A program made the translations under genes and the position numbers. 64,000 bases of DNA, taken from assembly GCA_951804945.1 (NCBI GenBank), contig OX638149.1, forward strand, positions 71,486,001-71,550,000. The letters are read 5' to 3'. The notes under the pieces were generated by a model. It worked only from the letters and a program-made list of their open reading frames with translations, was not told the origin of the DNA and ran no database searches. Source of the DNA: Podarcis cretensis (lineage: Eukaryota). Positions 1-49,602 of this stretch are shown here, one piece after another. Position 1 is the first letter of the stretch, and every line of letters begins with the position of its first letter.

Positions 1-1388
1 ATCACAGTCTTCTGTTACAAATACTAGTAGGACTTGTAGGTTTTTGGCCAGACATTATGACCCAAAATTAATAGAAAAATGCATGTTTGTCATATTTTGG
101 GATGAGTGACAAAAGAGGTTTATTATTTTAACAAAGATCTTGATGGTTCAAAAATTGGCTGTAGAGTTGAACAAAATAGTTGGTTTTAAAGATATGTGCT
201 GAAAGTAGGCAGTATGCCAATCTGTGCTAGCTTTTTTTTATTAAAAAAACCCCCATTCAGCTAAAATAGGGGTTCACCAACCTCTTTGGGCTCATGGGCC
301 CATTTGAAAACTGGAGAGACTGTCATGAACACCACATGTGTGCATGGCAGCTAAGCACATGCAAGCATGCTGACTTTGCAGGGGAAAGTGTGATCTTCAC
401 TGAGAGAGAAGCTTGGGAGAAAAGCGTTAGCCTGCCCTCCTCAGCTACATCCTTCCAAGCCTAACTACAACTGGCAATTCATGGTGCGTATGTGTGTGTC
501 ACAGCTGGGAAGGGAAGGGTTAACCCTTACCCTCCCCTTTTGTAGCACCCACCCTCCATTGTATTGCACTTCAAAGAAGATAGCTATTGGCTACAAGAGA
601 AGGCCCCTTTCAATTCTAATTTTAGCAGGCGTACAAGAGAAGGCCTCTGTGGCATCAAGTGTCCTTCTGGGTACTGTGTTGGTGATCTGTGAACTAGAAT
701 TCATATGCAAATAGGATGCATATAGAGATACAAAAACAAGAGCCAGCACACTTCTCTCTCTTTTTGTCCTACTTTTGTTGTGCTGTAGCTCTTCTGTGCA
801 ACAGTAGAGTGGTAACATTGGGGAAGCATTGCAGAACAACTAAAAAAAGCAGAAGAAACCCATCACTATTGCACTATTATTATGTCAATAATATGTTGAA
901 GATTACACCCCCAATAAAATACAATTCTGCAAGGGCACTGTGTGCCATAGCTGTCAATTTTTTTCCTTTTTTAAGGGAAGTTCCCTTATTCAGAATAGGA
1001 TTTCCCTTTAAAAAGGGAAAAGTTGACAGGTATGCTGTGTGCTTCCCGAGACTGTTAAACAGTTCAATGTACATCTGTGTGTATTTCAGTGGGTATCAGA
1101 AGAATAAGCCCATACCTGTAACTGGGCACGCATGCTCAGGAGAAGATTTGAGTGATCTTAGTTCTAGTCACCTACATGGAAGATTACAGCCTGCATCTTC
1201 TTGATGATGTTGTGGACAGGGATCACACATTACTCATGAAAACCAATGAGAGGGAAAAGGTTTGAGATTAAATATTGAGTTAGGAAGGTTCAAATATCAT
1301 TGAACCTGGGGTGCAAATATCATTCCATTTCAAATACACCATAGTAAAACCACATGTATGTTTAATATTGAAGAGCTTCATCGATGTA

Positions 1389-1583
1389 CAGGTGACTCTC
1401 AACTTGTGTGGGGTTTACGTTCCAGGGAAAACGTGCTAAGCCAGTCACGCATACATTGGGTTCAGTGACAGGTGGAATTTCTAATGTCTTTTTTAGTGGA
1501 TGTCCGCCCCCTTTTTATTATTTTTTTCCCCAAGCTGAATGCTCACAAGTTACCTTAAATGTTTGTAAGACTCTAGTTACCTG
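1389..1583. mobile_element. Decayed Tc1/mariner (Tigger-like) MITE
   Basis: Starts TA|CAGGTGAC and ends GTTACCTG, forming a short imperfect TIR. Confidence 0.4.
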
Positions 1584-1598
1584 TCTTGTAGGCAAGCT

Positions 1599-1660
1599 TT
1601 CCTTCCTTCCTTCCTTCCTTCCTTCCTTCCTTCCTTCCTTCCTTCCTTCCTTCCTTCCTT
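1599..1660. repeat. (TTCC)n microsatellite
   Basis: About 15 tandem TTCC units read directly. Confidence 0.95.
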
Positions 1661-2843
1661 TTTACTAGAAGACTCATTTACTGACAAAAGAGACTTGAGC
1701 AATTGCTTCATACTTTCTGAGATAAGGTTTTCAGCACAACCCTGCCACTGCTTTGTCATAACTATCTGTGACCTACACTGACTGGCTTCGAAGACACTGA
1801 CTGGCTTGGAAACAAATGAGAAGTAGCAGAAGACAGGAGAGAAACCTGTTTGACTACTGCCACTAGCCTCACCTCCCCAGGCAATTTCTTAGCCACTTCC
1901 TTTCCAGAAGCAAAAACAAATTTGTGAGGATAATCTGGTCATGTTCTGCGCAGAGGGAAACATGAGGAGGCAGGCACAGGAAATAGTTATTGCATCATTC
2001 ATTATTTTATGTGGTTAGTTTTCTCCCTCAAGCTGGTCTACCATGACTTGACTCATAACATGGAGGAGACTTTCCTGGAGAATCAGCTGTTCTTTGGTAA
2101 AGAAGATGAGGGCAGATGGAGATGACTAACTCTCCTCTTTCGTCATCAGCATTCACAGGTACAACAGGAGCTAGGCACTTCTTTGCATCCATTTGCATGA
2201 AGGTTGTCTGGGTTTTCTTTGTATGTGTTTCTTTTTTAAATGCAGGCAGAAAAAGAAGTGTCTCTACTAGAAAAATGAGTTGTTTCCTTAGATATTCACA
2301 AAACTTAGCAAAGATAATCAAATCAGCTTAGGCTGAATTAGGTATTATGAGAGCCATGTGGCTACCACTGAAAGCAGAAGCCTCATTTCTCATTCTCCCA
2401 CTCCTGATTCAAGTTTTGTGACGTAATGTCTCTTTTTGTCTGACCATTTCCTAACTGTTATTTCTGGATTCTACTGCTCAGTAATTTGATATTTGTGGAT
2501 TAATTTTGTCTTACTATATTGGTTTCCTATTTTAAATTGCTTCATTGTTTTTTATATTAAGTGGTAGGTTGGTAGGTAGGTAATTTCAGTGTGCTAAGTT
2601 TTCCTACCTTCATAAGTAGCAGCAGCCTTCTCCATGTGGACTACTAAAAGTGTGGAAAGGAAAAGTGCAAGTGACTCTTTCTTCAATTTATGCCCACTTC
2701 TGTGTAATATATGAGCAAGTATGTTAGCATAACTAGATAGTTCTGGGTATGCTACAACTACTCCTAACTTCTGACAACTGTGCCATTCTCAGAAGCAGTT
2801 AATCCACAATGCTTGTAGTACTCCAGCCTGACCTGCAGTCAGT

Positions 2844-3155
2844 TGGCATCCGTTTGTCTCAGGAGACACTGCAGTAATATGCCTTTGAGGGAGAGTTCAA
2901 ACTGCTGGAAGGTTACAGAGCCTGCTGTGGCTGTAGAGACCGATACCAAAGTGACATGTTTTGTTGTAGCTGGGGCAGCAGATGAAAGTGTCCAGTTGTG
3001 CTGCTGCAGATGCACTATGGCATTTCTTCTCTCTGCGCTCTGCCCAGAAGTCATTTCTCCTCTGGTCACTGCTATGGATACATTGACTGCCTGTCTCCAA
3101 GCACTGCGGTCATCTGCATGGGATTCCCATAGGGCAGGGTTGAATTGTCAGGTGT
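2844..3155 (-). mobile_element. RTE-clade LINE, 5'-truncated 3' end
   Basis: Minus-strand peptides FNPALWESHADDRSAWRQAV and CPSYNKTCHFGIGLYSHSRLC resemble the RTE ORF2 C-terminal Cys/His motif. Flanked by ~40-bp imperfect direct repeats. Confidence 0.7.
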
Positions 3156-5149
3156 AGTTGGTCCACAGTGCTTGTAGTACAGTACTCCAGCCAGATTTGC
3201 AATAGTGGAATGGGCACTGCACTTGAAATATGCTGTTGCCTGGCCTGCTTCTGTTTTGCTTAAGAATGTGTTCTATGGGATATGTATTTTGAGTTTTAAA
3301 GGTTTCTTCTTTTCCTGCTGTTGGCCTATGTTCTCTGGGGAGCCCATAACTGAGGTCAACTTTTGGTCTTCATCTCATTACTCCAAACCTACTGCACAAT
3401 GTTCTATTTTTGGTTCTCTTAAATGATGGTTTTTTTCTTTGGTTTGTTTGTAGAAGGCAAGATCCTCTGTATTTTAAGATGCTTGGCAGGCTGTACAACT
3501 AAATGTTTCTGCTAGCGTTTATCCTTAAAATTATTAGCACATTTTATTGTTTCCCCATTACTGCTAGTACACATTTTCTGTTACTGGAGTCTCCTTGACA
3601 GCCATATTGCAGAGGCTTTTGTATATAAGGGAACTACATCAGTCTTCTTCCTATTATAGCACTTGGAAGAGCACTCAGAAGGACCTCAAGAACTCTGGGC
3701 AAAATCTATCAAAGACATCTTCTGAACTCAAGCTAGGACCTCTGTGCTGAATTCACACATGCATTGAGGAGCACAAGTAGTTGTTATGCAGGCCTGCTAG
3801 TCCACTCTATGTTTTGTTATAACTACAGCATCCTCAGCAACATGTCATGACTGAAGGGGGCATGTAGAGTGGCGTTAGGAGAATTACTTTGACAAGAACA
3901 GCCTTCTCCATGTGGACTACTAACTCCTGCCATCCACAGCACTATAGCTAATAGTCATGGATGAAGGTATTGGGCTGTGGAAGGCTTGTCTAGAACCAGG
4001 CATGTGTGGAGGGATGTCTGTTCTACTTACCTGATGCTAAGCCAGTTGGGTTAGCAAAGTGAAAACTTCTAAGGAATTTGGTGTTTTTCCAGACTCCAGG
4101 GTGACTTCTCCTGAGCAGGTATCAGCTAGAAAATCTGCCAGATCTAGCTTCAGCTTTGGCTGGGCAACAGCTAGAATTCATTTTGTTTGCCTGCTTACTA
4201 CACCTGGGGAGGGCTTCATCCTCTCTCCCTGCTGCTTGTGTTTCCTGTACCCCACACTTTTAGTTATTTGGCTGCTTATGACTTAGCATCACAACAGGTA
4301 GACATGTGAAGCATATATTTTTGGTGTCTTCTCTCTCTCCACACCTTGCCATCCCACTTTCCAAGCAAGAAAACTCACAGCTACTTATAATGGCTTGGTG
4401 ACAAATACCAGCCCTGTATAGCATCGACTGGGTAGCTGCTTAGTGTGGATGCCTCTCTCTGTGCTGTCTTTGTTTGGAAATAGGGAACATGTGAACAGCT
4501 CTTCTCTTTGTCTCTTCACAGCTGGTGAACAGAGTAGGACACATCACCCTGCTGTACATTCTTGACATTCGAAGAAATTTTTCCTCAGTACATTCCCTGC
4601 ATCCTCCCCCTCCTCCATCTGTATTCATTCTCTACACATTTGAATCCCACACAGCCCTTGCAAAACATTAATATTATTATTATTATTGATGCAAGTCTTT
4701 TCCTTTGCCTGTTTTTCAGGTGTATGTAAACAATTGGGCTCTTTCTTTTATTGATGTGTATATATATATATTGAGTCATATATATGGAATGTTAGTTTCT
4801 CAAATTAACCACTTCATTTTCTTCCTAACAATGACAACAATTTTGTTTGTAAAGAGTTGTGGCATTTGCTAAAAGGATCCTTTCTCATCCTGGGAATGAA
4901 AGAGAATTGTATGGGACAATTACTAGCTTGGAGATTAAAGCAGTGTGGGAAATACTGTATTGGACTTTGGAGTTAAAGAAAAGAGTGGAAGTTAACAAAA
5001 AGTTCAAGAGCAAGCTGGAAAGGTATTTTTTCATGAGCCACAGAATAGGGGTAAGTGAAGCAATACTGTTTTGTGATGAACCTGAACAGCTTATGCTGTA
5101 GAGTTAAACTTTTCTTAAACCATGCAACTTTGCATAATAGAACTGGACT

Positions 5150-5230
5150 AATAATAATAATAATAATAATAAATTTTATTTATATTCCGCCCTCCCCAGC
5201 CGAAGCCGGGCTCAGGGCGGCTAACAACAA
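5150..5230 (-). mobile_element. L2-type LINE 3' terminus with (TTA)n tail
   Basis: (AAT)n followed by tttatttatattccgccctcccc...gggctcagggcggctaac, the reverse complement of a typical squamate LINE end. Confidence 0.6.
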
Positions 5231-5277
5231 TCAAATACCTTCCAGTAGCACCTTAAAGACCAACTAAGTTAGTACTT

Positions 5278-5317
5278 GGTATGAGCTTTCGTGTGCATGC
5301 ACACTTCTTCAGATACC
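5278..5317 (-). ncRNA. Minimal type I hammerhead ribozyme motif (Penelope-associated)
   Basis: Minus strand reads GGUAU-CUGAAGA-A-GUGUG(CAUG)CACAC-GAAA-GC-UC-AUACC. This gives stem I, the CUGANGA core, stem II, GAAA, a palindromic AGCU stem III and an NUH site. Confidence 0.75.
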
Positions 5318-5320
5318 TAT

Positions 5321-5356
5321 TATCTGAAGAAGTGTGCATGCACACGAAAGCTCATA
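5321..5356 (+). ncRNA. Second hammerhead core, sense to the DENND2B pre-mRNA, with stem I cut to 3 bp
   Basis: UAU-CUGAAGA-AGUGUGCAUGCACAC-GAAA-GCUC-AUA. Confidence 0.6.
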
Positions 5357-7544
5357 CCAAGTACTAACTTAGTTGGTCTTTAAGGTGCTACTGGAAGGAA
5401 TTTTTTTATTTTGTTTTGACTATGGCAGACCAACACGGCTACCTATCTGTAACTGGAACAATCAAATAATCAAACAATCAAATAATCAAACATTTTAAAA
5501 GGGGAAAGCACTTCCTTGTACGTGTCCATTGTTTAAGAGTTCTTTGAGAGAACAAAGTTAAGCTTTGAGCTGTTGTTTTTCTTTGGTGTCTGCTGAAAAG
5601 GTGATGTTGAGACAGAATCAGATGATTCAGTGTTGAAATCTATGTCTAGCCACAATAATGTTATAAAGTCATTTTGCTATTTCAGCACTACCACTTTCAA
5701 CTACCTGTGACTGTCCTTCAAGTTTATTGCAATCACACAGTGAGTGAGAGGGTTGTTGTTGTTTTTTACACTTTTATTCACTAATTTTCATGCCTGCTAG
5801 GTTTTCAGATTCTCATTGTATATAACACTTTAAACAGATTTTAATAAGCCAAATGTGATGGTAAAGCCTAATGTTCAGAATCAGGATACTACATTAATAA
5901 GGTGCTTTCGTTTCTTTTGAGCCAATGTACTGTATATATTTCTCTCCTTACCAGGAAAGAAATCACAAAATAACAGTACTTGCAATGACAACAACAATAA
6001 TTCAGAACTGATAGCCAGAAATAGTCTCTTTTGGTAAATAGAAACCATTTTAATACAATCTGTGGGTTTACTCCTTTCTATTGTGTTATCTAACTTTTAA
6101 AGTTGTGGCTGCAATTAGGTGAGTAATATGGGTTTTCTAGGACTTGTTTTATTGTTTTGGAAGGCTGTGTGCCTAGAGGTTGGGATCACACTCTCCTACC
6201 ATGTTGAACAAATAGGGCTTTGTTGGCTAGAAATCAATCTTTTTCTGATGCTTACAGGACAAAGAATGGGATCTTGATTTACCTTTCTCAGAGTCTTGCA
6301 CAAAATCCTTTTACCTCTTGATCATCTTAGTAATTGGTTCACAAACCTAGGTAGATGTAGGTTTATCTCTATACAAAGGCTACAGGAAATTGACTAGAAT
6401 AAAAGGTTAACTGCACCTTTATTTTTAATCTAGTCTAATATGTCTAACAAATGACCACAGTCTGACTTGCTTCTGAGAAAATATGTTTAGGACTGTGCAG
6501 GTTGTCTCTATTTTGCTGTCTCAGTTGCATGCCTTCAAATTCAGGTTCTACAATGGAAGTGGATTTGGTGTTTTTGTGCAACAAACCCTCTTTCTACGCC
6601 CACCTCCATCTTGTTAATTCCTTTTGGTAGTGCATGTGTGTTTCACAGGTGGTTCTCAAACACATGTACTTGGTAAAACCCGCTTGCAAAATTTATTACT
6701 GTGTACACACTTCTGCTTATTCTGCATCCTGTGCACTCCCAACTGCTGGCTTTGGAAGGGTTGTAAACACAACATCCATATCTATCCTATATCTATCCTG
6801 TCATTTCTTAGGGAATACTGCATTTTGATGCATTCTTCCCCAAATCAGCTTCGATCTAAACTGAGAATAATAATGGCAAAGCTGCAGTTTAAGCCAGCAA
6901 TGTATGAGTAGAATAGTACCTTTATTAGGACTAACTTTAACCCCACTAAGTAACGAAGCTTATAAAATTGTAGGCAGCCATGTTACTCCATGAGGAAAAA
7001 CCCTAAATTCACAGTAGATACCTGTATTAGGATAAGCTAAAACAAAGATGTTCCTGGACACCAACTCCCATCAACCCGATTCATATGGCTTGGATTGGGG
7101 ATGATGGGAGTTGGAGTTGAGCAGCAGCTGGATAATAACAGGTTCCCCATCCTGGAATTAAAACATCACAAAGTAAGTGACGTTTGGATAAGTTGCTTTG
7201 GGTTGCCTTGGGCATGATAAAGTGACTGACAAATGTAATAAATAAATGAATGAATAAATAATAAATGCATTTGTTTTTATAACATACACTCTGGCTTTTG
7301 ATTCTCCTGCCACAAATATGAAATTATGATGACTTGGGAATTACTTTTGGATTTTGTGAGGCAAGCGAGAAGCAAAATGAGAAATAAGAGGTTTCAAATA
7401 TCTGTGTTAAATGCAGAAGACAAAAAAGATCTCTGATTGTAAATATTACTGTAAATATGACTTGGAGAGAAATATTCTTCCTGTTCATTGTGTCAGGAGG
7501 AAAAGTTCAATGTTACTAGTTGATACAAATTTAAAATGTTTGTT

Positions 7545-7735
7545 TGAGCAGAGTGGAAGGTTCGACTTTTACCTCAGCCGTGAACTCACTTGGTGGCCTT
7601 AGGCAAGACACTATCCTTCATACGAAGTACAGACATAATACTGCCCTGCTTTACAGGATTGTTGTAAGGATTACTGAGATTATGAATGTGAAGTGGATTG
7701 AACACTCAAAAGCATTAAGTATGTGCTAAGTTGTT
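7545..7735 (+). mobile_element. Old CORE/MIR-like SINE fragment
   Basis: ggtggccttaggcaag...ttacaggattgttgtaaggatt...tgtgaagt...tgctaagt resembles the CORE domain and L2-derived tail. Confidence 0.55.
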
Positions 7736-8314
7736 GTCCTCCAGAGCTCTGTTCAACTGCCAACTCTATAAAATGGCCACTGGTTTTGTCCAATCATCCA
7801 ACTATGTCAGAGCAAAGAATATAACAATTGATATTGATAGTACACAAAGAGTGTGTAAATAGGGGAATAAGGACTAACCGGTCCATGCATATAGGAAGGA
7901 GTAATACCTAAAAGTGTACCATCAGTGTTATGTAATGCAGCCTACCTTGTGCCCCCTAAGCTGCCTTGCTGCCCTTAGGCATGAGGGAGGCACAGTCTCA
8001 TCACAAGTCTTGAAGTCAGGTTCAGCTGCCAGTATGGTGGGCTTCTGTGCATAGACTAGGGTGGCGTAGGGACCATCTTGTCTTTTGCTCCAGGCAGCAA
8101 AATGTCTTTGCCAGTGCTGTCTGTGGACCATGTATTTAAAAAAAAAGGGGGGGGGAATAAAAAGTATTCTAGTATCAAATGTGTGCACTTTCAGAAACCA
8201 TTTTAGAAAAGTCTACTAAGTTGGGCCTACTCCAAACGTTTGGCCTTAGAAACAAGAGCTGAGTAAAATCTAGGTAGCCAGGTAGCTGATTAGTATTTTT
8301 CTTCTTACTTCCAG

Positions 8315-9535
8315 GTGTCAATCAGTCTCTCCACCGCCTCTTCTATACCAACCAAGAAGCCCAACATATCCCCTCAGCGACAGTGAGGATTCCTGCCGCT
8401 CCAGTAGTTTGACCAAAGTTTCCGGCTCCAGGGTGCTCCTCAAGGACCGGACTAACTGTGGAGTTACCTTGAGAAGCGCCTCGAGTTCCCCCTCAGACAC
8501 TGAATCTCCAAATCACCCCCTCAAAACTGTCAGCATTGGCTGCTTGGACAAAAGGCTCTCTCATTTCCAGACTGAAGACCAAAAGGAAGCCTCCAAGGAG
8601 ACTCAGGATGGAGAAGCTGTAGGCAGCCGCCAGCTTACGCGGAGCACTCTCTCCTTGGGGTCTGCAGTGAACCTCCGGAACCTCTCCCTCAGCAGGGTCA
8701 GCGTCCATTCCCAAGCACTTGATATCAGGCAGAAGATATCAGAATGGGAATGTCGGAAAGAACCTTCCCCTAGGATGAGTGTATGCTTGGACAAGAGGGA
8801 TGTTGGGGACAGGTCAGGCAGTGAGACTTGCCCTAGTATGTTGCCTTCTCCCTGCAGCGAGAAGACATTTGACTACAAAGGGTTCCGGAGGATGAGCAGA
8901 ACGTTTTCCGAATGCTCCTACCCAGAAACAGAGGAGGAGGAATTCCTGGACAGAGATTCCTGCCACAGGTTTGAAAAGAGGCCGAGCAGGAGTGAGTCGG
9001 CAAATGCTTTCTTCAAGGGGAACGCAAGAAAGGAGAGTTCTGCCGTGCTGAACAGAATACAGAAGATTGAGCAGGCTTTAAAAGAACAGCCAGGCAGGGG
9101 TCTTCCTCAGTTGCCCAGTAGCTGCTATAGTGTTGACAGAGGAAGAAAAAAGTCTGTGACTTCGGGTATTGTGGAGGACTTGAATGAGAACACAAATGAT
9201 AGTAAAGCAGGGAGTGTTATTTGTGGGAGTAGTCCAGAGACACCCACAGAGACTGATAAAACTAGTAAAATGCCACAAGGACTCAATGCCACAGTTAGTC
9301 CTGTTGGTCCTAAGCTGCTTCCTGAGAACTTGGCGAACACAGCGGTAAACCCTGTGCCCAAGCCCAAACGCACCTTCGAGTATGAAGCTGACAAGAACCA
9401 TAAAAGTAAACCAAGCAATGGCCTACCTCCTTCACCTCTGGCTGCTGTTCCTCCCCCTCTTCCGTCAACTCCTGCTCCCCCTGTCACCCGGAGGCAGAAA
9501 AAAGAGTCACGCTTCCACAGAAAATCCCAAAATAG
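8315..9535 (+). CDS. DENND2B: DENND2B large N-terminal exon (1221 nt, phase 2-2): (R)CQSVSPPPLLY...PPPLPSTPAPPVTRRQKKESRFHRKSQN(R)
   Basis: Acceptor ttcttacttccag|G and donor AG|gtaaag. Contains ORF 8409-9539 with the proline-rich SH3-ligand region. Confidence 0.95.
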
Positions 9536-17171: not shown

Positions 17172-17796
17172 GCAGAATTCATCATGCGAAAGGCTGGGCT
17201 GGATGAATCCCAAGCCGGAATTAAGAGTGCCGGAAGAAATATCAACAACCTCAGATATGCAGATGACGCAACCTTGATGGCAGAAGGCGAGGAGGAATTA
17301 AAGAACCTTTTAATGAGGGTGAAAGAGGAGAGTGCAAAATATGGTCTGAAGCTCAACATCAAAAAAACTAACATCAAAAAGACTCCTGCTTCTTGGGAGA
17401 AAAGCAATGACAAACCTAGACAGCATCTTAAAAAGCAGAGACATCACCTTGCCAACAAAGGTCCGTATAGTTAAAGCTATGGTTTTCCCAGTAGTGATAT
17501 ATGGAAGTGAGAGCTGGACCATAAAGGCTGATCGCCGAAGAATTGATGCTTTTGAATTATGGTGCTGGAGGAGACTCTTCAGAGTCCCTTGGACTGCAAG
17601 AAGATTCAAACTATCAATTCTGAAGGAAATCAGCCCTGAGTGCTCACTGGAAGGACAGATCCTAAAGCTGAGGCTCCAATACTTTGGCCACCTCATGAGA
17701 AGAGAAGGCTCCCTGGAAAAGACCCTGGTGTTGGGAAAGATGGAGGGCACAAGGAGAAGGGGACAACAGAGGACGAGATGGTTAGACAGTGTTCTC
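17172..17796 (+). mobile_element. Bov-B (RTE) LINE fragment, RT domain and C-terminal region, internally deleted
   Basis: ORFs 17184 (GRNINNLRYADDATLMAE) and 17407 (KAMVFPVVIYGSESWTIK...DAFELWCWRR...YFGHLMRR) are characteristic Bov-B ORF2 peptides. Confidence 0.92.
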
Positions 17797-19974
17797 TAGT
17801 AGGGATTTTGGATCCAGATCAGACCCTTACAATTCCTGTGGGACTTTACAATAAAACAATCTTTTTAAAAATCCCCACTAGCAATGTTGCATATGAAAAT
17901 GTGAGTGGAGTAAAACCAATTGTTTCATTTTTTTTGTTTTATATTTGGCCCCATAGTACATGCTAGAGTCAGTCACAAATGCTTGAGCAGAGTCCAGAAG
18001 TCTGAGAAGAGCTCGAATTATATACTAAATTAATTGAGAACTTCTTATTGTTTTAAGATTAGCTTGAAATAAAAGGTGATAGCTGCATATGATGACTTTC
18101 TGGAAACTCAGCAAGTGAACAGAATAAACGAGCAGCATTCAAAACCCACCATCATTCAACTGATGTCTGAAAGCAAGTTTAAAAGAAGAAGAAAGAATGC
18201 TTCTTTCTACCTCAGTAGTATTGCTTTACTGACATTCAAATTTCTGCAAATTCAATCAATTGATTAATAAACTAAAACTCATACGATTAATCAATTAAAA
18301 TTTCTTTAATAGGGTGACAGCTCTATACACAGTACAAGGAGAGCTTTCCTAAATGACTCTTCTGGAAGTTACTGAACCCAACCATAGTATTCAATTCTTA
18401 TGAATGCCATCTTGAAAACTGCTCAATAACAATAAAGCAGACCTTCACTGACCTATAATAATTTTGCCACATTTTAAAAATAAATCCTATATTATTATAA
18501 ATATGGGCTGAAAGTATTTTACTTTCATATTTTTAAATCCTTGATTATCATGATTGAATTTTCAAAGTTTTACTATGGACATGCATCTGCAAATACTGAA
18601 TTATTCTAGAGAAAATGCTAAAACCCATTGTTTGTAGCCCAGTTCACACAGCACATTCATGTTCAGGGAATATATGTATCGGGAACAGGTGAGACCATGT
18701 CTGCTTGCCCTGCCCCTGAGTTCCTTGTGGGGTGGTAACAGATGACTGAGTTTGTCCTTAGGAATATAGGAAGTTCCCTTATACTGAGTCAGACTATTGA
18801 TCCATCCAGCTCCTTGTGGTTTCTGCTGCTTGGCAGCAGCTGCCCACAGTTTCAGGGAGGAGCCTTTTCTTGCCCTCTCCAGACATGCAGTGAACTTAAC
18901 CTGGGTGCATGCAAAGCGAGTGCTTTTCTACTAACCTATGGCCATTCCCAAGGCAGCTCCTGTGGCCTTGAGACTGGCAGGACTTTGAACCTGCAATCAT
19001 TCTTATACAGAGTCCTTGACACTCTTCAAAATACAAAGTTCTCCGGAAATCTGTAACCTGTCTTTTAAGGTGAAGCAGGTTCTTCCCCGTCGCTAAGAAT
19101 GCAATCTCTTGAACCTAGGGAATTGAAAGTCGCCACTGTTGTCTGCTCACTAGCTTCAACAATGATTCATCTCCCCTGTTTCCAGTCTGCTTGCCAGTGT
19201 CAGTCCCAAATCAGCCAGGATTGTGGTTTTGAAGGAGCAGCAGATTGTTCAAGCCTGTCTGCAAGCTCACACCTGCTTGAGAATCGCTATTTGTGTTGCC
19301 TAGAAAATGCCTCTAAAGACAGATTTTTTTGAGTTGCAAATCTGTTCTCTTAGTTATAGACTAACGGGCAGAAATGCTTTATGTGCTACATGAAATTCCC
19401 TTTGATAAATCCCTGCTTTCAGAGTGCAAAGGAAACATGCTGCTCCAGATAATTATATGAGGAATTCAGTTTTTCTTTTTCTTGGTGCCATTTTTCATTC
19501 TTGCCTCACTTCATTCTTGGCTTGCTTAGCTTTGCCTAGACTTGGCTTCCCATCTGCCACGCTTGACAGCCAGTGTGGCAAGACATTTGCTGCACTGAGG
19601 GGCTGGCTGCATTCCTCGGAGCTGCACATTGAAGGAGTGCAACCATCACAAACAACTCATCAGTGCTTCAACTCCCCAGCACATTATTCTTTATTTCCCC
19701 CAAAGTGTGTTGATTATTTTACCATGGCTTTCATTTGCTCTTACTTTGGACAAAATGTTGCACCATGTTGCCAACAAAACTATTCTGCAGATAAATGCAC
19801 TGGAAGCGGTAGATTCAGGAATCTAGGAAAGAAAAAAAATTTTTTTTAAAGACAGTTGACCTCCATTAAGGACCTGTGGTTAGAATTCTCATATTGCAAA
19901 ATGCTGGATTTAAGAGATGTGGTCTTAAACTGAAGTAAAGTCTATACTTTTCCTTCAACACCTGTGGGAGAGTG

Positions 19975-48552: not shown

Positions 48553-49602
48553 GTAAAAAGAAACCTTAAACTTTCAAGTAAAACCCTAACACACATATTC
48601 TCTCTCTCTCTCTCTCTGAAACAGTAAAATAGTGAGAAAGAAAGTAGAACACAGAGAGCTATCACAGCTCTGGAAGTTACATGTATTGTGGATTTATTTT
48701 TTAAAATAAGTTTCTTTTGGGAAGCTGCTTCATTAGGCAATTTACTTTGGTGTGTGTATATGTGTAACTGCTTCAGGAATCTAATTTATATTTGTTTAAC
48801 AGATTCTATGCTATAGGGCGTCTTGGTTTTATCTATGAAAATTATGACATCAGCAGGCTTTATCACAAGGTCAGCAAGCTAGCCATCAGAGTAGTCTCAA
48901 GGTGTTTTCGCTTGTTGACTAATCCCTAGTGGTTAAGTCAGGAAGCTACAAGTCACCACAGGCAAGGATTGAAAATTATAACCAACATGTTGCAACAGTT
49001 TAGTACCGTATATAAGTATGTCACAATTTTGTCTATATTTGGTCATTAAAAGGCTACATAGTTCAGCCTACAAATTAGTGTCATTGCACTTTTGTCATAG
49101 TCATGAAGCTAGCCAAGCAAGAAATAATTCCTGCATTCATAACATACTGTATGTGAGCTAATTCTTTTTACGTTGTAGTGTATGAATGATGGAATGGTGT
49201 CAGTTTCACTCTGTGTACTTGGCTTTTTGTGCTTTTATATTGTAAACCACCCTGTGATCTTTGGATGAAGGACAGTACAGGGATCTAATAAGTAATAAAA
49301 TAAATTTTAATAAATTATAGTAAACCAATACCAACATCAGCTTCATGTCAAGCACACATTAGGCAAAATACGCACTTTCTCCTTCTCTGCATATTGCGGA
49401 AAGTAACATTTCCTGGGAAAAATACCATAAAAGGTGACATGAATTCTCAAGGCTACCAAACCGGGCAGACAATCCAAGAAATGTTTTGTTACTTTCAAAT
49501 TCCACATAATAATTAACCAAAGTCAGGATGCAAGATTGGCATAATGTCCATATTATAATCAAGCCAGTTAGAACATGACTTGTGTTTGTGGAATGCATTC
49601 AG

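Follow-up and report, generated by a model that had tools for sequence, protein, structure and literature searches.

The locus raises the question of how two hammerhead ribozyme motifs came to lie head to head on opposite strands of a perfect inverted repeat, in what is likely a lizard intron, and whether the arrangement does anything for the host gene. Taken as a whole it is explained, with a probability that we put at roughly 0.8, by head-to-head insertion of the hammerhead end of a Penelope element, with both nicked target strands priming on the element RNA. Judged from the sequence, it is close to certain that the locus derives from a Penelope-like element, whose pseudo-LTR end and tail are joined here to a shorter copy in inverted orientation. 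In the analysed window (the whole stretch of 64,000 nucleotides from Podarcis cretensis), the insertion is 219 bp long, head to head and without ORF body. Its two 78-bp arms, 5238-5315 and 5321-5398, are reverse complements at 78/78 positions around the loop CCTAT, and the hairpin has a predicted folding energy of -156.3 kcal/mol (z of -21 against 200 shuffles). It is bounded by 12-bp copies of AACAATCAAATA at 5226-5237 and 5457-5468 (+ strand), 12 bp being the modal duplication length of the Penelope family here (26/77 ends). The exact inverted repeat, its 5-nt loop and the 12-bp target-site duplication are all present as given in the preliminary description. Because a third copy of AACAATCAAATA at 5473-5484 is part of a 16-bp tandem in the right flank (the right duplication copy opens this short tandem, 5457-5488), the target duplication by itself is weaker evidence.

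Positions in the element are counted from 0, the first base of TATCTGAAG. The short inverted arm (5238-5317, minus strand) is tail-less; its outer end, at about +77, is the start of a U-rich tract that we term site A, and at its inner end 5317 reads G on the minus strand, a base absent from the parent. A 3-nt junction filler, TAT (5318-5320, + strand), repeats the first bases of the right arm. The long arm (5321-5456, + strand) carries the hammerhead, a 5' leader and a one-sided tail (5399-5456, + strand), which from the ATG at 5422 corresponds to the start of the parent ORF (its first 11-12 codons). The outer end of the tail, on the 5456 side of the + strand at +135, is termed site B and overlaps the duplication by 3 nt (AAC). 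The long arm is the same as that at three other loci at 136/136 bases, which bears out the earlier claim of a recent insertion. Directly to the left lies an older, unrelated high-copy repeat (5149-5225, minus strand) with a simple-repeat (AAT)n tail and very high depth over 5170-5216 in four DNA runs; the Penelope insertion landed in its A-rich end. Contigs from four DNA runs break at repeats and none spans the locus, and no empty allele was seen. In one run, labelled as another organism, the right-flank contig has 6 letters ahead of 5457 that do not align; this hints weakly at absence of the insertion and was given no weight. The insertion is likely both recent and inert.

An intact parent was found in the same genome. 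Locus L196 (G000:C14:51054500-51064400, elements at L196:1795-7583) holds a tandem of two 910-aa Penelope ORFs, with a repeat length of 3,011 bp and units 99.97% identical. The single ORF matches RVT_1 (E 9e-12) and, at its C-terminus, GIY-YIG (E 1e-4, at its cut-off), and the C-x4-C-xx-C linker upstream of the GIY-YIG motif agrees with the CX2-5CxxC form of the Neptune clade; in the accessible text of PMC8557442, a CX4CxxC-type linker is given for Neptune and Nematis. A search for literature on Neptune in squamates, which covered few subscription journals, found nothing. The combination of an RT and GIY-YIG ORF, tandem pseudo-LTRs, and an inverted copy with a one-sided 30-40 bp tail and a duplication is that of an EN+ Penelope-like element, and the match of pseudo-LTR end and tail to this parent confirms the Penelope origin first proposed. 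Longer copies extend upstream into the GIY-YIG coding end, and one copy has RT-coding DNA in its inverted part. Since L196 is intact and a 251-bp RT stretch has 41 matches, 13 of them with the top score across its full length, the family is probably still active.

Exact 35-nt cores number 7,659 genome-wide (control 0), and at least 721 loci have a head-to-head junction with up to 30 nt between (counted once per locus; control 0). When 82 loci of the 35-nt core list were examined in genome order, 46 were head to head, so the inverted insertion described earlier is shared by much of the family. That description went too far in treating the arrangement as special: the locus is an ordinary one, one of hundreds of the same shape. 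Elsewhere in the genome, five identical variant hammerheads with stem II GTGTGT-ATT-ACACAC lie 39-50 kb apart (L216-L220, G000:C3:120.55-120.73 Mb), probably inside a segmental tandem array, and an open frame that we take to be SCAN-domain-like (L030:2208-3134) lies close to a long inverted Penelope insertion.

Both arms contain the core CUGAAGA-A-stem II-GAAA-GCUC, at 5284-5312 (-) and 5324-5352 (+), and these are the only core matches in the window (0.15 expected). Each belongs to a minimal type I hammerhead motif, with the core elements CUGANGA, GAAA and UH, stems I and II, and a palindromic 15.2-16.2. The motif antisense to the host gene (5278-5317, minus strand) has a 5-bp stem I, GGUAU:AUACC, and a predicted cut after 5283. 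In the sense motif (5321-5356, + strand), which is buried in the duplex, stem I is reduced to the 3 bp UAU:AUA and the predicted cut follows C5353. The preliminary description was correct as to the two cores, the cut nucleotide and both stem I pairings. It had also called the minus-strand stem I full; five pairs are indeed present, but the last of them is owed to the junction G that the parent lacks, the parent's own stem I having 4 bp. The core also occurs with other stems in further families of the genome (73 matches vs. 4 in the control), which argues that the motif is real. The covariance-model check proposed earlier gave no match: searches of Rfam with the region and with each arm alone, at E values up to 10, returned no hammerhead family, the motif being one without helix III. 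Rfam miRNA matches were all below gathering and hairpin-driven, and the locus does not qualify as a miRNA precursor. Stem II (5332-5345) is a perfect 14-nt palindrome and a frequent landing point for junction jumps. Co-folding two cores did not yield a helix III dimer, long duplexes through palindromic stem II forming instead.

Opening the hairpin to force the sense hammerhead would cost 62.9 kcal/mol by fold prediction, in agreement with the claim that the sense core is locked in a duplex, and a 78-bp duplex in the host pre-mRNA is predicted to exclude the ribozyme fold. The term self-neutralised ribozyme was nevertheless an overstatement. The sense arm is predicted to form no stem I even when folded alone, motifs of this type gave no monomer cleavage and low dimer cleavage according to the accessible part of PMC4209133, and the ribozyme of a lizard Penelope requires the element's protein (PMC11167929). 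Taken singly, the arms are predicted to be no more stable than shuffled sequences (z 0.4 to -1.9). Read ends did not pile up at the predicted cut site in four RNA runs, which is a weak test.

The large exon of the host gene (8315-9535, + strand, 1,221 nt) has its AG acceptor at 8315 and lies 2.86 kb downstream of the insertion, close to the 3 kb first estimated. Because this exon begins in phase 2, a strict scan of 1-8290 found no upstream ATG exon to match it, and DENN-domain exons follow on the + strand at 49600 and 59721, the insertion likely lies within an intron of a + strand DENN gene. From its translation we take the exon to be DENND2B. Pfam and Atlas searches gave no name for it, so that of the DENND2B intron originally described the DENN-gene intron is likely and the gene name lacks support from these searches. 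A LINE-like fragment at 17350-17799 presumably resembles the RT end of an RTE/Bov-B-type LINE.

Paired into a 78-bp duplex in the host pre-mRNA, the arms would likely be ADAR-edited as a by-product. Four RNA runs (two studies), labelled as another organism and with no matched DNA, were aligned to the parent; no RNA data set was listed as containing the locus itself. At +46, +50, +61 and +62, two bulk runs showed A>G in 8-41% of reads in one direction vs. 0-3% in the other, and genomic copies carry G at the same four sites in 0/246, 0/245, 1/245 and 1/245 cases. Sites of A>G (11-16) and T>C (17-20) in RNA compare with 3 and 3 in genomic copies, and G>A and C>T were alike in both. Against an editing reading, direction bias occurred elsewhere too (G>A at L196 1831, 9/333 vs. 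117/298), and single-cell runs showed A>G in both directions. A lizard Penelope is massively edited, at over 40,000 sites, in the accessible text of PMC5625713, which describes the same major A-to-I substrate and the same preference for U/A upstream and G downstream; there, species and family differ from ours and editing is not tied to self-contained inverted insertions. ADAR editing of Penelope RNA is thus quite probable for the family as a whole. For the earlier proposal that this locus is an ADAR substrate, the support lies at that level, in the A>G reads and in the published lizard data, and the reads are not assignable to the locus; adenosines 5367, 5371, 5382 and 5383 (5367-5383, + strand) correspond to the four positions at which RNA of the family shows G.

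How such insertions arise was approached through the ends of their arms. From 175 fetched loci, picked by several searches and hence non-random, 87 distinct inverted pairs were parsed; outer ends at or below +105, mostly in the U-rich tract, were scored as site A and those above +105, at the tail end, as site B. One end of each kind was found in 79/87 pairs, the others being AA (6) or BB (2). The rule was followed by 31/34 pairs in the least biased subset and by 59/59 pairs whose duplication measures at least 10 bp; the present locus, ending at about +77 and +135, conforms to it. Duplications measured 12-14 bp at 63/77 tail ends. Short overlaps with the duplication occurred at both outer ends; at site B the overlap between element and duplication averaged 1.56 nt vs. 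0.43 (2,000 permutations).

At the inner ends, 44/99 sampled cores start at -5 to +3, and the remainder are scattered over hundreds of bases. Genome-wide, 8,915 copies reach -1; the parent match ends at -1 in 2,483 of these (1,618 with G, 865 with A or C), at -3 in 1,544 (T in 81 of the first 100) and at -4 in 334, and 3,418 read through past -9, some of the counted departures being point mutations within longer copies. Pairs with one short and one tailed arm in 59/59 duplication-bounded cases, combined with about half of the copies starting within 4 nt of the 5' edge of the hammerhead, suggest concerted two-strand priming on RNA with a defined 5' end. Upstream of 0 the parent reads TTTCAGTG, with TATATAG at -34. 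In 41 of 41 sampled copies that lack the upstream bases of the parent, the junction base is G; T precedes GGTAT in 29 of them, and the third base upstream is not templated (TT 7, AT 13 of 29). A capped start, with copied cap and added base, may be the best account of the junction G, a question on which we find the balance even. Copies of the -3 class share no common upstream exon sequence, and no splice joint on the parent was found among the RNA rows listed. No RNA start pile-up at -1 to -4 was seen in four runs, where 87-91% of reads are host-embedded copies. Joints in two single-cell runs lead from L196 1932 to 1739 (+189 back to -4), and other RNA reads lead from +61 back to -1 with G between; such back-joining reads would reflect tandem copies that begin again at this boundary, or circular forms. 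The parent hairpin UUUCAG-UGUAU-CUGAAG (L196:1735-1751; -8 to +8) overlaps the hammerhead core, an Inr-like motif and an acceptor-like CAG. In the predicted centroid structure it pairs the CUGAAG of the core in read-through RNA, where it is predicted to compete with stem I and act as a switch.

The mechanism that we favour, at somewhat better than even odds as far as sequence can tell, is two-strand priming. The endonuclease would nick both target strands with a stagger of about 12-14 bp. One target 3' end would then prime in the U-rich tract of site A, around +80 to +100, and its partner at the tail end, around +127 to +139 (site B), aided by base pairing over 1-3 nt. The two cDNAs would extend to the 5' end of a short RNA starting 1-3 nt before the hammerhead, and would then be joined head to head. 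This RNA 5' end would likely be a transcription start that follows a TATA box by 30-33 nt, and the extra G a copied cap. As both arms span the cleavage site, the template would be uncut RNA. In L1 twin priming, two target 3' ends prime on RNA to give an inversion bounded by a duplication; there the cDNAs copy different parts, whereas here they overlap, both copying the hammerhead. A lizard Penelope protein nicked and extended both strands in vitro from internal RNA sites that bound the tail, and used uncut RNA (PMC11167929, the only literature since 2024 on the two-strand model found in a search that covered few subscription journals). In that system, which belongs to a different clade, the two strands showed no difference in where extension started and primer-template homology was not found, whereas the genomic record here has one site per arm and short target overlaps. 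A more specific version, which we hold tentatively and below even odds, is that one complex primes both strands at two fixed RNA sites, one each, and copies to the capped 5' end at the hammerhead boundary, the upstream hairpin that binds CUGAAG keeping the ribozyme off in read-through RNA and freeing it in RNA starting there.

Several observations count against two-strand priming: the four RNA runs show no start at -1 to -3, the 175 loci are non-random, no empty allele was seen, and several junctions are clean fold-backs at the parent hairpin, which fits self-priming. The latter is the main rival, although an unlikely one: a single cDNA would copy itself after folding back close to the pseudo-LTR boundary, either at a short palindrome or at stem I, the endonuclease trimming one end to leave a one-sided tail. 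It was proposed for a rotifer Penelope from palindromes at inverted junctions (PMC3846280, in its accessible text), and the hairpin at -8 to +8, the loci with fold-back junctions exactly there, and the complementarity of TGGTAT to the 3' strand of stem I, with its T before GGTAT in 29/41, would all suit it. Many junctions, however, are not clean palindromes, their arms starting at different points with filler or short jumps; the third upstream base is untemplated; and the duplication overlaps at both outer ends are as expected of two primers.

The remaining alternatives are far less probable than either. A mobile, retrozyme-like mini-element, in which the hairpin itself is transcribed, cut by the hammerhead and re-inserted, would account for the high copy number, and a derivation of animal retrozymes from Penelope pseudo-LTRs has been argued for (bioRxiv 10.64898/2026.07.22.740005, accessible text). 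It is very improbable, as junctions and arm lengths differ from locus to locus, so that each appears made afresh, the cores face outward rather than in tandem, and the ends lie away from the cleavage site. A non-LTR retrozyme was rejected, since it requires head-to-tail tandem units and the two cores here are head to head on opposite strands. Co-option as a host regulator, whether a ribozyme switch or a dsRNA signal tuning splicing or stability of the large exon, has an even slighter chance: the strong predicted duplex in the sense pre-mRNA and the family-level A>G speak for it, but the locus is indistinguishable from hundreds of copies, its lack of divergence leaves no time for visible selection, the acceptor is 2.86 kb away, and even on its own the sense core is not predicted to adopt the hammerhead fold. 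Least credible is an assembly artefact or chance hairpin. Perfect inverted repeats can come from library preparation, and no contig bridged the locus, but the family-typical duplication, asymmetric arms, junction filler, the 721 such loci with varied junctions and the similar joints in independent DNA runs all argue otherwise.

An inverted copy with a one-sided tail and a duplication is already known as the published Penelope pattern. In the accessible text of PMC3846280, PMC2377424 and PMC8557442, Adineta Pen2a, D. virilis Penelope and the general scheme have, as EN-bearing insertions, the same head-to-head copy and target duplication, the same one-end tail of first ORF codons and, in their pLTRs, the same short palindrome and TATA/Inr-like motifs. 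Compared with the inverted-pLTR insertions described there, the present one is only 219 bp with no ORF body, the duplications are 12-14 bp rather than 8-10, and the arm rule has been counted across 87 pairs. The motif itself shares with the min-HHR of metazoan Penelope-like elements (PMC4209133, accessible text) the core, the extra base before stem II, G10.1-C11.1, the palindromic 15.2-16.2 without helix III and the 4-bp native helix I. Such min-HHR are known from reptiles, with opposite-strand pairs 100-700 bp apart; here, a 5-bp helix II is self-complementary throughout, about 10 nt separate the cores, and N7 is A. With PAc, the Poseidon element of Anolis carolinensis (PMC11167929), our family shares two internal priming regions with the tail between, nicking and extension of both strands, and an uncut RNA template, the last two by the proposed mechanism. 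It differs in the parent's CX4CxxC linker (Neptune/Nematis type) and in an ORF that starts 100 nt after the hammerhead, the PAc ORF starting inside stem II.

The locus itself is thus of little importance. The family, in turn, is a young and abundant source of 40-100 bp hairpins in introns, which offer a simple reason for the heavy editing of lizard Penelope. In the accessible text of PMC8557442, how inverted ends and tails arise is called unresolved, and the arm rule and defined inner end are modest, testable leads on it. If the specific version with two fixed RNA sites and a capped 5' end is true, short inverted insertions would be a direct genomic record of Penelope-like integration. With an intact parent and hundreds of short insertions under a strict one-site-per-arm rule, the way in which inverted ends arise can be tested in an existing in vitro system.
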